Below the pieces are notes generated by a model. That model searched no databases, was not told the origin of the DNA, and saw only the letters and a list, made by a program, of their open reading frames with translations. The translations under genes and the position numbers were made by a program. Below are positions 2,505-54,450 of a stretch of DNA of 64,000 bases, one piece after another (position 1 is the first letter of the stretch; the number at the start of each line of letters is the position of its first letter). This DNA comes from Eledone cirrhosa (Eukaryota), in the NCBI GenBank assembly GCA_964016885.1, contig OZ024753.1:1364001-1428000 (forward strand), in the 5' to 3' direction.

Positions 2505-3323
2505 TACGAGGTGTGTCAGAAAAGTTCCAGGACTGATGTCAAAAGATTTATTTCAAACCCAAACTTCACACTAAGAGTTTTCTCCTTCAAAGGAATCCCC
2601 CTGGAGTCTAATGGACTTTTCCATCCTTTTCTGTCACGCTTGCATGCACTCCTGGAAGGATTCTTCCAGGATCCTCCGCAGATCCGTCGTCACAGCCTTT
2701 TTGATGTCGTCCACGTCTTCAAAACGGGTCCCCTCCGGGTTGTACTCGAAGATCCATGACTCATCACCGGTGGTGACTGTCCCTAGAAAGTCTGGTTCGG
2801 TTTCAAGACGCTCGAGGATGTCCTGGCACACTTGCATGCGTCGACCCTTCTGGTCATCGTTCAGCAGTTTTGGCACCATCTTCGCGCAGACTTTCCGCAT
2901 GTCCAAATCTTCAGTGAGAATCTTCCAGACGATTCATGCCCAGCTCATTTGACATCAGTCGAACAGTCAGCCGACCTCAGTCATGGTTGTTGAGGGCCTT
3001 CCACTCATGGGGTCATCTTCCACGTCCTCGCGTGACATCGTCTCATCTCCATACAATTGCTGCAGCAATCCCAGTGCTTCTGACGGAGTTTTCCCCAACC
3101 GTACCAGAAACTTCAAGTTTGTTCGTTGCTCTGTGTTCATTGCTTGACGACAGAGGACATGTATATTAAATTATGAAGAAAAAAGTTTGATCGCTGCAGA
3201 GAGCAAAGATTACAGTTACATACTCCAGGGGGATTACTTTGAAGGAGAAAACTCTTAGTGTGAAGTTTTGCTTTGAAATAAATCTTTTGTAACATCAGTC
3301 CTGGAACTTTTCTGACACACCTC

Positions 3324-39223: not shown

Positions 39224-40975
39224 ATGAGCAGAAAGTGGTGGTTCTCCGTCACAATTATGACTTTCATATTATTCAATAGTTATATATGTGTGACACCATC
39301 TCCTATCCCAGCAGTTAACAAGTTCGATCTTCTGTCACACAATAGACATTCACAGTTTCAGGATTCTTCCCAATACCAATACCAACAACAACGAAGACGT
39401 TTACAAAGACAGTTGGCTCAGCAGCCAGCGGGTCACTGTTTAGAAATATGGGATGACAATACAGTACCTTGTGAAAGGGATTTAAATAACATTTGTGTCA
39501 ACGAAAACTGGTCACTTCTGGATTTAACCAAACGAAGAGACCACTTATCCTTTATAAATTCGATTGATTCCAGCATTGTTAAAAATGGTAACCTCAAAGC
39601 AAGTATTCAAGAATATGTCAGGCTTGGTATACCGAGGCCTCAACGTAAACTGACCAATCATCATCATCACCGTTCAGTATATTCTTGGAGCCAATGGAGA
39701 AATACATGTTTTCAAAGGTGGATGACTTTATTGAGGCGTCGTTTGAGCACAGCCCGACTCGGTGACTTGGTTATTCCGGGGACTCATAACAGCGCATCTT
39801 TTTCTGTATCACCAAATGGCACTTTGGTAGAAAAGCTTTGGATTTCGCGTGTCGCTTTGAGCCTTGGTTTCAGGGACTATTTCAGCTCATGGGCTCGAAA
39901 CCATGATGGCGGATTAGGTGCCCAGCTAAATGCTGGCTACCGATGTCTTGATTTACGTATTGCTTTGCTACCAAATGGAGGATTTTACTGGTGGCATGGA
40001 ATATCTGGAGAAACCATTGAATCCGGTTTAAAAGAAATTGCTAGTTTTGCGACGGAGAATCCGGGAGAGATCATTATACTTTTAATTTCTCATTTAAATG
40101 TTCCCGGTGACGGAATTCAAGAGAAATTACCAATGCCAGGTGAGTCAAAGATCAAACTTGGTAAATATTTGGTATCTATTTTAGGACCAAATCTTGTCTC
40201 AACACGGAACATTTCTTTAAACCCTACCTTATTAAGTGTCATCGCCACAGGACGTAATGTTATTGTTCTGATTCGGGAAGATAAAGATTTAGTGAATGCC
40301 TTCCCGGATTATTTCTGGAGCGATGTCAACAACGAAACGGTAGTGGAAATATTTGAACGAAGAACGAATCCTCGGAGTATGTTTACACATCGTTCTGACA
40401 TCATGCAGAAATATAAAAGAAATTTTCCTAACAGAATGGCCATCACTCCGGCTTTTGTGACACACAATGTTCCAAATATTTTGGGAGGAATACTAAGAAG
40501 TAAACGGGTAGCTTGGGTTCTTTCTTTGCTGTTAACAATTACGTTCTATCGCTTAATTCAGTCTTCAGAAAAAAGGTACTTTACGACATTTTTCTGTACC
40601 GGATTAAAAAGACGTAACCATGCTAAAGTCACAATGATATATCTATTAATTATAATGATATCTGTGTATTTAGGACATCTACAGCATAGGACTATACTAA
40701 AACTGTTTGGATTCGAGGGCAAGGCCACGAATCTAATAGAAATGGCAAGAATAGCTAACCTTTGCGGAGATGATCCATCGAAATCTAACGGAGAGGTAAT
40801 GTACAAAGGTATTAACTCAATGATCCGGCATTGGTCGGATAGAGGACAAGAATACAGACTGAATATCGTTCTGGTTGATGATTTTTCCTCCAGTCAAGCG
40901 GTAAGGACAGCTATACAAGAAAATATTCGCAGAACAGATGTTGACAGATATAACAGGAAAACTAAATTTAGTTGA
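39224..40975 (+). CDS. PLCXD: Intronless PI-PLC X-domain-containing protein (PLCXD-like), 583 aa, with predicted signal peptide and two internal hydrophobic helices
   Basis: Only long non-repetitive ORF. It carries PLCXD/bacterial PI-PLC motifs in order: WM...LGDLVIPGTHNS (His188), AQLNAGYRCLDLR, WWHG (His258), ENPGEIIILLISH, GRNVIV, and C-terminal NIVLVDDF...AIQEN. The N-terminus is hydrophobic (WWFSVTIMTFILFNSYICV). The symbol is family-level only; orthology is not established. Confidence 0.9.
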   Translation: MSRKWWFSVTIMTFILFNSYICVTPSPIPAVNKFDLLSHNRHSQFQDSSQYQYQQQRRRLQRQLAQQPAGHCLEIWDDNTVPCERDLNNICVNENWSLLDLTKRRDHLSFINSIDSSIVKNGNLKASIQEYVRLGIPRPQRKLTNHHHHRSVYSWSQWRNTCFQRWMTLLRRRLSTARLGDLVIPGTHNSASFSVSPNGTLVEKLWISRVALSLGFRDYFSSWARNHDGGLGAQLNAGYRCLDLRIALLPNGGFYWWHGISGETIESGLKEIASFATENPGEIIILLISHLNVPGDGIQEKLPMPGESKIKLGKYLVSILGPNLVSTRNISLNPTLLSVIATGRNVIVLIREDKDLVNAFPDYFWSDVNNETVVEIFERRTNPRSMFTHRSDIMQKYKRNFPNRMAITPAFVTHNVPNILGGILRSKRVAWVLSLLLTITFYRLIQSSEKRYFTTFFCTGLKRRNHAKVTMIYLLIIMISVYLGHLQHRTILKLFGFEGKATNLIEMARIANLCGDDPSKSNGEVMYKGINSMIRHWSDRGQEYRLNIVLVDDFSSSQAVRTAIQENIRRTDVDRYNRKTKFS

Positions 40976-41159
40976 CCAGAGATAAGACACAAAGTACATT
41001 ATATATACAAACATATATATATACAAACATATATACATACATGCATACATACTCACATGAATATAAATATGTTGATATATGCATAAATATACACATTACA
41101 TGTATATATGTATACACACAGACATGCTAGCGTGGAAAATGAACGTTAAACGATGATGA

Positions 41160-45931: not shown

Positions 45932-46142
45932 CAGACCCGCATACCAACAGCAGATAACTTCACATTTCACTTCTGCCACCATAATTATTTCTCTTTACTT
46001 CCAATGTTTAAACACAGTAATTGTGTCTGTTGTGTACAGTGTCAACAGTACATCAACTATATTGAAATAATACAAGCTTAAAAGGTTATTTTAAAGTGTT
46101 TGCGCGCCCGAGTCTCCATGTATGCATAGATACATATGCATG

Positions 46143-46194
<52 letters not shown>

Positions 46195-46195
<1 letters not shown>

Positions 46196-46500
46196 GTAGG
46201 CTTGAATTTCGAATTGAAGATAGCGAGTTTGGCTTTTACACATGCCACCCTTCTTCTGATAACCGAGTGCTGAAGCTGGCACATTACTGCACCAGCTCCA
46301 ACAATTCTTGCATTAAATTCAAACTTCTGCTTTCCATCATTTGTGAAAACGGCTCCGAGATACTTGAACTTCTTCACCTACTTCAATGTAACTCTACATA
46401 CATATAGTGTTCTCTACACAGGCTTCCTTTAGGAGGACGAATGTCTCAGTCTTTGCAGCACAGATTTTCATTCCTGCCATACAGCACTCGGTACTAAAGC
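46195..46500 (-). mobile_element. RTE-like LINE RT fragment
   Basis: VKKFKYLGAVFTNDG...EFNARI...KAKLAIFNSKFKPTLIY. Confidence 0.75.
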
Positions 46501-52315: not shown

Positions 52316-52539
52316 TAGTGTTATTGTTTTGTTTTTATAACCCTATATTTCTTTCCTTCCTGATATCGGGAGTAAACTGGGTGGGATGTTGTCTTTTGGA
52401 GGTTTTATAGTTTTATAATTACACGTATGATGTAAATCAAGTATGGTGCTCTACGAAACCTTCGTGTAGATTTATATAATTTTAAGTTATAATCATAAAA
52501 TTATTTTTAGCATAGGCACAACAAACCTGATCACAACAG

Positions 52540-52960
52540 CATCCTCTGATGAACATGAGGTGCACCTGAGAGAAATAACTAACCTCTCAGAGGCTGGGGT
52601 CAAAGAGCAATTAAAGAGTTCAAATGTGGCAAGGCCCGAAATTTTAAAAGCCTTAAATAGAGAAGGCATCTCTGGCCGACTCGTGAGAGCCAGGTGACCT
52701 GGGTCTGCAAATGTACCTAAGCAATGGCAATCAGAAGTGAAAATCCCAATTTTCGAAAAGAGGGATAAGAGAGATTGCTATAATTATAGAGAAATCTTCT
52801 TGCTAAGCCTCCCCAGTAAAGTCTATGCTAAGTGTCTGACAAGATGTAGGGATATGGTTGAGTCTAGCCAGCTGACGAACAGTATGGTTTTCACCCTGGA
52901 TGCAGCACAGCCAAACCTAACTAATTATGTTATTAGGAAGGCACTGGGATATATAAACAT
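52540..52960 (+). mobile_element. RTE-like LINE RT N-terminal fragment
   Basis: PEILKALNREG; IPIFEKRDKRDCYNYREIFLLSLPSKVYAKCL. Confidence 0.75.
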
Positions 52961-53100
52961 TGAAAAGCCACCAGATGGACATGAAGTGCTCATTGAATTC
53001 CTCACAGAAACTGAAACCCATTTTTAAGGCCATTAGAAGATCTCTTGACAAATGCACCAAACGAAATGAAATCACCTGCCGTTAATATAATTCCATTATC

Positions 53101-53313
53101 GGATTGGCAGTATCGGAAGAGAGTCGGACGCCATGCTTTGCAGCATAGAGTTACGGCCTTTTATGATCTGAGTTCAAATCCCGCCGAGGTTAACTTTGCC
53201 TTTCATCCTTACGGGGTCGATAAAATAAAGTACCAGTCACGCACTAGGGTCGATTTAATCGACTTTCCCCTCCCCCACAATTGCTGGCCTTGTGCCTATA
53301 CCAGAAATCATTA
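53101..53313 (+). mobile_element. SINE family A, full length
   Basis: GGATTGGCAGTATCGG head through GAAATCATTATT tail. Confidence 0.85.
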
Positions 53314-53319
53314 TTATAT

Positions 53320-53930
53320 TTATACGGAAAAAATCTGTCATAACAGATTTTAAAAATTACAAATTCATCAGCTTCATATATAACAACGAGCTTGCAAACC
53401 GTATCAATAGCGTCTTAGACTTCAATCAACGAAACCAAGGGAACAAACAGGGCTTTAGAAGTGGGTTTTCAACAACCGACCATTTACAGGCCATAAACAA
53501 AATAATTCAGAAATATTGAGAATACAGACAATCATTATGTTTAGGCTTTATCGATTATGAGAAAGCCTTCGACGTCATTGAAATACCAGCTATGCTTGAA
53601 ATTCGTATTGATCGGAGAACGCACCAAACTTAGATATAAATTAATAAGAAAATCTATAATTAGGTATAAGACTTCATACGGAAAGTGAAAGGATCAATAT
53701 TGTAAGTTGCGCAGGAAGATATCTTTAAATAATTTAACTAAAATAGAAATGGAATCAACATAAATAGTGAATTTTGATGTTATTTATGCTACGCTACGAT
53801 GACGAATTAACCATCTCAGGCGATGTCTGTGAACTGGAACAGATGTTAAATGAACCGAACAAAGAAAGCAACAAGGTAGGACTAAAAATAAATATGAAGA
53901 AAAGACAGCTTATGTTCGACTTTGAAGTCA
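53320..53930 (+). mobile_element. RTE-like LINE RT fragment
   Basis: QGFRSGFSTTDHLQAINKIIQK, LCLGFIDYEKAFD, LEQMLNEPNKESNKVGLKINMKK. Confidence 0.8.
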
Positions 53931-53944
53931 ACATAACCTGATCA

Positions 53945-54450
53945 GTTATGATTGGGGAAACTTGGATACCTTCATGAATTTATTGGAATATTCAAAAAAC
54001 TCCATCAAAATACGAAAGCAATGGGACACTTTCAGAGTCAATTTCAGTCAAAAACGGTGTCAAACAAGGCGACATACCTGCACCCACTGTTCTCCTACTT
54101 TACCATGCTACTGACATATGCCTTCCAAGACTTTGAAATCGGTGTGTACTTGCAAATTAGAACCTCTGGCAAAGTATATAATCTAAAACATTTTAACACC
54201 AAGTTCAAAACATTTGACATTCTTGTCAGGGAGTTCCTGTATATTGATGATGCAGATTTTGTGGTATACACAGTAGAGGGCATGCAGTTAATATTGAACC
54301 ACCTTCTCCAATGCATGCACTGTGTTAGGCCTAAATATTAGTATAAAAAAGACAAAGCTCATGTACACTTCACCAGTTGGGGAATGTATGTGGAGCCAGG
54401 CATTTTAGTGAGATGGACAACTTTGTGTATCTCGGAAGTACACTTAGTAT
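53945..54450 (+). mobile_element. RTE/BovB-like LINE RT fragment (separate element)
   Basis: KNGVKQG..PAP, GVYLQIRTSGKVYNLKH, VREFLYIDDA, NFVYLGSTLS. Confidence 0.78.

Follow-up and report, generated by a model that had tools for sequence, protein, structure and literature searches.

Phosphatidylinositol-specific phospholipases C (PI-PLCs) of the bacterial type, such as those of Listeria monocytogenes (1aod/2plc), Bacillus cereus/thuringiensis (1ptd) and Staphylococcus aureus (3v16), are secreted, soluble and peripheral enzymes with a short loop that joins strand 7 to helix G of the barrel (the β7-αG rim loop; PMC9572076). In the Bacillus enzyme, whose numbering and catalytic residues, with Asp33 among them, are taken from the same source, Trp242 in this rim loop and Trp47 in helix B insert into the membrane. 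In animals, PLCXD1-3 and Drosophila dPLCXD possess a single bacterial-like barrel with two catalytic histidines. Membrane-bound eukaryotic enzymes are also known: GDE3 is a glycosylphosphatidylinositol (GPI)-PLC that cleaves in cis and has been described as the first mammalian GPI-PLC (PMC5576486), and the GPI-PLC of Trypanosoma brucei is localised by acylation and topologically sequestered from its substrate (PMC3749955, PMC8406259). Here we describe an intronless open reading frame (ORF) at positions 39224..40975 on the forward strand of a 64-kb stretch of Eledone cirrhosa DNA (hereafter the window), which encodes a 583-residue protein with a predicted PI-PLC barrel interrupted by a hydrophobic hairpin.

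Fold and active site of the 583-residue protein

The ORF contains no internal stop codon. Orthologues that bear the names of Octopus bimaculoides, O. vulgaris and Argonauta hians are 76-84% identical to the protein, and a word-seeded search returned nine homologues (59-90% identity), of which five carry the name of one of these species or of O. sinensis. Every near-full-length homologue keeps the block of residues 48-104, the barrel and both hydrophobic helices, and all except one, which may be truncated, keep the signal-like start as well.

When searched alone, the protein scores below the gathering cut-off for Pfam PF00388 PI-PLC-X (12.2 bits, E 0.15, cut-off 23.1 bits), the best subfamily member reaches E 0.00047, a single-sequence search of the PDB gave no real match and an NCBIfam search matched none of six proteins. 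A profile of 30 sequences, however, matches bacterial PI-PLC structures at E 2e-14. The AlphaFold2 model has a mean predicted local distance difference test score (pLDDT) of 77.8, with values of 82-98 in the barrel, about 67-90 in the hairpin helices, 57 in the linker between them and mostly below 60 in the pro-region; a second model (P0028, nine sequences, pLDDT 47.5) was set aside. Strands are predicted at residues 184-187, 241-248, 284-294, 346-350, 364-366 and 405-409, followed by the insert and a last strand at 548-551. An earlier note on this DNA had proposed structure prediction as a check on whether the barrel closes around the hairpin, and in the model it does, the last strand completing it.

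Residues 161-569 of the model superpose on residues 21-294 of the Listeria enzyme 1aod (Z 25.1, root-mean-square deviation 3.0 Å, 263 residues). Bacterial PI-PLCs lead the structure matches (Z 24-25 over 263-276 residues), ahead of mammalian PLCs (about 16) and glycerophosphodiester phosphodiesterases (GDPDs; at most 11.5), although structural-alignment identity to bacterial PI-PLC is only 16-19%. In the active site, H188, R245, H258 and D552 are the equivalents of Bacillus His32, Arg69, His82 and Asp274, and together with D243 they are kept in all five cephalopod-group rows of alignment A3. The predicted barrel and these five residues bear out the earlier note's description of a PI-PLC X enzyme with both catalytic histidines, and the six residues it had numbered (H188, H258, V429, I445, V469 and G484) lie where it placed them. 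Its predicted fold and four catalytic residues place the protein in the PI-PLC X superfamily of bacterial fold; that it cleaves PI or GPI we infer from fold and residues only.

Comparison with the known systems shows where the protein departs from each. It shares with the bacterial enzymes a whole-barrel match and four catalytic equivalents, and would share the secreted type, yet it carries a 90-residue loop with two predicted transmembrane helices where theirs is short, Asn in place of Asp33, and a 135-residue pro-region. An ordinary PLCXD is a single soluble domain of about 300-350 residues with a short loop; ordinary-type relatives also lack both the insert (39 of 39) and the C-terminal signature of the subfamily described below, and on these sequence grounds the 583-residue protein is not an ordinary PLCXD. 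The nearest Atlas feature clusters are named PLCXD or GPI-PLC (0.96), and the automatic name of the top cluster is of the Trypanosoma brucei GPI-PLC type; our own likening to that eukaryotic, membrane-associated enzyme is by description. Like GDE2 and GDE3 (GDPD5/GDPD2), of which GDE3 acts in cis, the protein would work as a membrane-anchored ecto enzyme, but GDE2/3/6 belong to another family: there is no GDPD Pfam match, the GDPD folds score far lower, and six transmembrane helices stand against a hairpin inside the barrel. Classical eukaryotic PLCs (beta, gamma, delta, epsilon and zeta) differ in turn, as no PH, EF-hand, split X-Y barrel or C2 match was found in Pfam and their Z is about 16 against 25.

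The hairpin insert and its predicted topology

The loop from T413 to N503 spans 90 residues here, compared with 6-45 (median 16) in the 39 ordinary relatives. Between the two sequence motifs by which the earlier note had bounded its insert, the extra sequence is indeed present, at 79 residues rather than about 75. Besides the three Kyte-Doolittle 19-residue (KD19) peaks in Table 1, at residues 6-24, 429-447 and 469-487, there is a fourth, of 1.44, at 332-350, which falls on a helix and strand of the barrel in the AlphaFold2 model. Both hairpin peaks return in all eight near-full-length cephalopod-group proteins examined. In the 17 hairpin proteins of the subfamily, the best two 17-residue windows have a mean hydrophobicity of 0.52-0.99, a hydrophobic moment of 0.04-0.24 and no more than one charge, where low moment and low charge are the informative part, the windows having been picked for hydrophobicity. 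Soluble relatives, by contrast, often carry a charged amphipathic helix at this site. The membrane hairpin within the barrel sequence, as the earlier note had put it, thus reappears as two predicted helices that lie after strand 7 and before helix G.

The position of the insert is suggestive. In profile A6, strand 7, the following loop and helix G of the Listeria and Bacillus enzymes correspond to residues 405-409, 413-502 and 503-513 of the query, and the Bacillus loop that carries Trp242 stands directly before helix G. On the strength of these alignments, the hairpin would arise from the membrane-contact rim on the active-site face. Because the hairpin occupies this rim loop, the active site should be turned to the bilayer that receives the anchor, and the enzyme is predicted to face the membrane in which its own hairpin is anchored.

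As to sidedness, the linkers of the 17 hairpin proteins contain 99 Lys or Arg among 395 residues (0.25), against 42 among 340 (0.12) in the outer flanks, a count that pools related, non-independent rows. According to the positive-inside rule, basic loops lie on the cytosolic side of the membrane, and the linker is therefore placed in the cytosol. At the N-terminus, the best 12-residue Kyte-Doolittle value is 1.75-3.37 in nine of ten cephalopod-group proteins, and hydrophobic N-termini are found in hairpin and soluble members alike wherever the N-terminus seems complete. A signal-like N-terminus followed by two crossings would place both parts of the barrel in the lumen. The signal-like start claimed in the earlier note is thus upheld by hydropathy heuristics, and its lumenal or ecto orientation is the best reading of the predicted helices, the basic linker and the signal-like N-terminus.

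Together, these observations raise the possibility of a PI-PLC of the secretory pathway that spans the membrane twice and, on its lumenal or outer leaflet, cuts PI or GPI anchors in cis, a proposal that we regard as an even call. The N-terminal signal would bring a bacterial-fold PI-PLC into the secretory pathway, with residues 26-428 lumenal; helix 1 would cross inward, the linker would lie in the cytosol, and helix 2 would cross back, so that residues 488-583 are lumenal and complete the barrel. The hairpin, emerging from the β7-αG rim loop, would hold the enzyme in the membrane and keep its active site turned to that same membrane. Catalysis would follow the metal-independent His/Arg/His/Asp mechanism that bacterial PI-PLC uses, and the barrel, facing lumen or exterior, could then cleave PI or GPI anchors in cis; sidedness, cis action and substrate are the steps that we infer.

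Table 1. Features of the 583-residue protein and their positions in the window
Feature	Residues	Position	Strand	Basis
Single-exon ORF for a bacterial-fold phospholipase of PI-PLC X type that carries a hydrophobic hairpin insert	1-583	39224..40975	+	ORF reading, orthologues
Signal-peptide-like or signal-anchor N-terminus, basic start then hydrophobic stretch	about 1-25	39224..39298	+	KD19 1.53 at residues 6-24
Conserved pro-region block: Gln/Arg helix, invariant C72 and C91, sequon N95	48-104	39365..39535	+	22/57 positions invariant in 10 rows; pLDDT 43-58
Variable linker with non-conserved His run and basic clusters	105-160	39536..39703	+	0/56 positions invariant; pLDDT <50
Barrel, first part, up to strand 7 (residues 405-409)	161-412	39704..40459	+	156/252 positions invariant; Listeria match
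H188 (His32 equivalent) and N189 (Asp33 in Bacillus)	188-189	39785..39790	+	alignments
D243 and R245 (Arg69 equivalent)	243, 245	39950..39958	+	alignments
H258 (His82 equivalent)	258	39995..39997	+	alignments
90-residue insert in β7-αG rim loop	413-502	40460..40729	+	amphipathic flanks conserved (11/16, 7/11 invariant), hairpin variable
Predicted transmembrane helix 1	429-447	40508..40564	+	KD19 1.46; mean hydrophobicity 0.61, moment 0.14; model helix 427-449
Basic linker, predicted cytosolic	448-468	40565..40627	+	5 K/R, 1 D/E
Predicted transmembrane helix 2	469-487	40628..40684	+	KD19 1.80; mean hydrophobicity 0.68, moment 0.05; model helix 465-499
Barrel, second part: helix G, strand 8, last helix	503-571	40730..40936	+	50/73 positions of residues 499-571 invariant; profile A6
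D552 (Asp274 equivalent), on strand 8	552	40877-40879	+	profile A6 to Bacillus and Listeria C-termini

Weighing the alternatives

A number of points weigh against an outward-facing enzyme anchored by a spanning hairpin. The signal and transmembrane calls derive solely from hydropathy, moment and charge heuristics, and the AlphaFold2 model was built from 30 sequences and without a membrane. Three linkers hold no more than two Lys or Arg and have no bias, and in the 583-residue protein itself five such residues in the linker face five in the outer flanks, a weak charge bias. Bacillus strand 7 is several residues out of register in the HMMER alignment, so that the assignment of the loop leans on Listeria and on helix G. 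The sequons noted earlier are present (N95, N198, N329 and N370), and none of the four is lost from any of the 10 orthologue rows, within a core that is 62-68% invariant; nevertheless the barrel holds three against 2.84 expected from shuffles, which is chance level, and as proof of a lumenal barrel they were set aside as carrying little weight.

Some of the contrary evidence would fit an inverse topology, in which the barrel is cytosolic, the hairpin anchors it to an endoplasmic reticulum (ER) or endosomal membrane, and PI or phosphatidylinositol bisphosphate (PIP2) is hydrolysed as by the known PLCXDs. Characterised animal PLCXDs are reported as intracellular, at endosomes and ER-plasma membrane contacts, where they work on endomembranes from the cytosolic side; they are described as lacking regulatory domains and as acting on PI or PIP2 (bioRxiv 10.1101/2024.05.08.592949, PMC13542105, PMC6605811). 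The weak charge bias of this sequence points the same way, as does a K-x-K-x-x C-terminus (window 40961-40972) in 6 of 12 rows, all of Octopus type. Such a tail resembles an ER-retrieval motif that is known to act only on the cytosolic side. However, the dilysine-like end is missing from Argonauta and from the more distant orthologues, and the basic linker across 17 hairpin proteins, along with signal-like N-termini in nine of ten cephalopod-group rows and in soluble relatives, makes this arrangement quite improbable. An outward anchored enzyme, whether in a Golgi, lysosomal or surface compartment, could also act on a different headgroup, for instance that of inositol sphingolipids, of lyso-PI or of the phosphonosphingolipids of molluscs. 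Lumenal leaflets contain little free PI; N189, which sits at the Asp33 position, is invariant across the cephalopod group, though several ordinary-type rows likewise have Asn at this place, and the low structural identity and the sub-threshold Pfam score also leave room for another substrate. Yet PI-specific enzymes lead the fold matches by about 8 Z units, the equivalents of His32, Arg69, His82 and Asp274 are kept, and human PLCXD1, with the same fold, converts PI to diacylglycerol (PMC13542105), so that we consider a change of headgroup unlikely.

It is conceivable, moreover, that the hairpin, without spanning the bilayer, serves a secreted phospholipase of digestion, mucus or saliva as a large monotopic anchor, by which the enzyme docks in trans on membranes that are foreign or belong to food. 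The subfamily contains soluble forms and a Pseudoalteromonas protein with a Gly/Ala-rich insert, the equivalent bacterial site is a peripheral binding loop (PMC9572076), and helix 1 is marginal here, at a KD19 of 1.46 within an orthologue range of 1.42-2.54. Against this stand the low moment and near absence of charge in both helices, which in distant orthologues reach a KD19 of 1.9-2.7. The gland literature adds a weak negative, the gene often being annotated as uncharacterized: by term search, PI-PLC was absent from the main text of three gland or venom papers (bioRxiv 10.64898/2026.04.09.716377, PMC12607849 and PMC7656900) and from one gland-proteome supplement of PMC7693380. A monotopic anchor accordingly seems to us a poor prospect, and gland expression, which the earlier note had entertained, is unsupported; a venom role was considered and set aside.

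The remaining alternative, an unspliced intron or a processed pseudogene, we hold to be very improbable and largely refuted already. The ORF is intronless and lies amid transposon remnants, 6 of the 12 GT-AG pairs that bracket the hairpin preserve the frame, and a second copy is seen in one sequence run. On the other hand, the hairpin has an open frame and stays hydrophobic in every orthologue, even at 59% identity, RefSeq and GenBank gene models include it, and 12 more distant proteins share it. Four of eight listed sequence runs were aligned to the window at 80% likeness, and in X1 (39610-40966), X4 (40082-40800) and X8 (40216-40932, no differences) the whole hairpin is bridged by one contig that shows no joint there. 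X1 and X4 stem from a relative about 90% alike and their RNA nature is only guessed, X8 is of unknown kind, and the fourth run, X5, yielded no more than four short pieces, all unrelated. Contigs that are continuous in three of four runs speak against an intron, and splicing out of the insert, which the earlier note had named as refuting its reading, is unsupported.

The second copy, about 88-91% alike, lies in run X8, which also holds the exact sequence, and covers 39392-39732 and 40772-40981; O. bimaculoides, O. vulgaris and O. sinensis have two named entries each. Because of this copy and the paired entries, a duplication of the phospholipase gene in octopods is suggested. Relatives also seem to bear introns: a donor-like site is present at L067 4880, and the N-termini of P0040 and P0198 look like acceptor read-through before the W223 position. 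Since relatives appear to have introns and the cephalopod ORF has none, intron loss or retroposition is hinted at.

The pro-region block at residues 48-104 matched nothing outside the cephalopod group among the proteins gathered in this analysis (best outside score 3.1 bits), and it has no link to the N-terminal repeats of the soluble members. Of the features that the earlier note had listed, the RRR cluster (R57-R59) is the sole invariant basic cluster; it lies where the pro-region begins, within a helix predicted at low confidence. KRR, RK and the run of His residues are not conserved. No conserved R-x-K/R-R or dibasic convertase site was found between pro-region and enzyme in 10 orthologue rows, in keeping with the complete lack of invariant positions in residues 105-160; zymogen processing was therefore set aside and the activation proposed in the earlier note is unsupported.

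The window is microsatellite-rich animal DNA in which the ORF is the sole convincing protein gene found and the rest gave, by eye, transposon-like remnants. Among these are a broken mariner-like transposase remnant (2637-3170, minus strand, by eye from its translation) and, also by eye, fragments like the reverse transcriptase of long interspersed nuclear elements (52470-54338, plus strand; 46081-46377, minus strand). At 1334-1689 the same reading occurs on both strands (1334-1522 plus, 1501-1689 minus), a pattern that implies a long inverted repeat with about 170 bases per arm.

A wider subfamily and its meaning

A phmmer search over 1.84 billion representatives gave 782 matches, 23 of them under 1e-30, and the 30 longest and best subfamily matches were aligned. 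Of these, 17 show a pair of hydrophobic peaks at the insert site (5 from the cephalopod group and 12 others), 12 have there a loop of 18-56 residues without a peak, mostly acidic (the soluble type), and one, from Pseudoalteromonas, has a 60-residue Gly/Ala-rich hydrophobic insert. The earlier note had allowed that this architecture might be the ordinary lophotrochozoan PLCXD form. Strictly it is not, as all 39 ordinary-type relatives lack the insert, but neither is it peculiar to the E. cirrhosa gene and its orthologues, as 12 of the 17 hairpin proteins lie outside the cephalopod orthologue group.

Among 20 distant representatives looked up, the members with an organism name come from Owenia fusiformis (P0030), Saccoglossus kowalevskii (P0031) and Pseudoalteromonas (P0033), the two animal proteins being of the soluble type. 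The last, 905 residues long and in a cluster of eight, is the only named bacterial member and combines N-terminal crystallin-type repeats, the barrel and the same C-terminal domain as its relatives. A further soluble member (L067:3803-4890) lies in non-coding DNA and its frame ends at a donor-like site (CAG/GTATGA), which points to an animal gene with introns. The subfamily is wider than the cephalopods and probably mostly animal. Several soluble members (P0030, P0034, P0035, P0041, P0043 and P0052) carry Trp/Tyr/Gly-rich N-terminal repeats with no Pfam match at E 0.1, which by eye recall carbohydrate-binding modules.

An extra C-terminal domain of about 150 residues with conserved cysteines (P0030 residues 520-668) is found in 19 of 30 rows, namely all 13 non-hairpin and six hairpin members (P0038, P0048, P0049, P0051, P0075 and P0029), and is absent from the cephalopod protein; it has no Pfam match, and its best Atlas match (TM 0.46) is unusable. 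Five of these six hairpin proteins lack at least one catalytic residue, the status of the sixth being ambiguous by one alignment column, and those that have lost catalytic residues are likely to be membrane-anchored pseudoenzymes.

A quick tree of 52 rows was computed with the insert columns removed and 22 outgroup rows (P0053 and P0059 dropped as fragments, P0006 and P0009 added), supported by the Shimodaira-Hasegawa-like approximate likelihood-ratio test (SH-aLRT) only. The subfamily, which stands apart from the 22 unnamed ordinary-type rows in a tree that holds no named PLCXD, and the cephalopod group each reach 100; the cephalopods with four hairpin proteins that lack the extra domain reach 93, and the soluble members with Pseudoalteromonas 98. 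The pairing of Pseudoalteromonas with Saccoglossus has only 85. A single origin of the hairpin is neither rejected nor shown by the approximately unbiased test (p-AU 0.41). The Pseudoalteromonas form possibly reflects transfer between animals and bacteria. P0033 had no relative in a scan of GTDB representatives, and prokaryote pattern scans, which are insensitive and leave a wider bacterial range possible, gave 53 and 13 loci that match the N-terminal half only. The C-terminal signature of the subfamily was found in none of 89 prokaryote-scan loci (best 6.9 bits), the cephalopod patterns had no match in JGI metagenomes, and profile word searches reached no further (nine known matches and four without a useful name).

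The architecture, as judged from these alignments, is real and conserved and has a known enzyme fold; no description of the hairpin form or of the subfamily was found in the literature covered, which lay mostly outside subscription journals. Public annotation ('PI-PLC X domain-containing' or 'uncharacterized') misses it. Within the subfamily, the series of loop lengths (18-19, 42-56, 60 and 57-103 residues) may show how a peripheral enzyme becomes integral without breaking its barrel. Few endogenous animal enzymes are known to shed GPI-anchored proteins from intact membranes, and if the proposed topology is true, an outward, substrate-side tethered PI-PLC of bacterial fold would be a second, convergent solution beside that of GDE3. 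More tentatively, and with more doubt than belief on our part, marine bilaterians may possess a second, undescribed lineage of bacterial-fold PI-PLCs in which the membrane-binding rim loop became a transmembrane hairpin and which, independently of GDE2/3, gave a GPI sheddase that acts in cis. Its sisters would include soluble, secreted forms and catalytically dead membrane forms that keep the novel C-terminal domain, and Pseudoalteromonas would have received a copy; the cephalopod enzyme would then be a regulator of GPI-anchored surface proteins.

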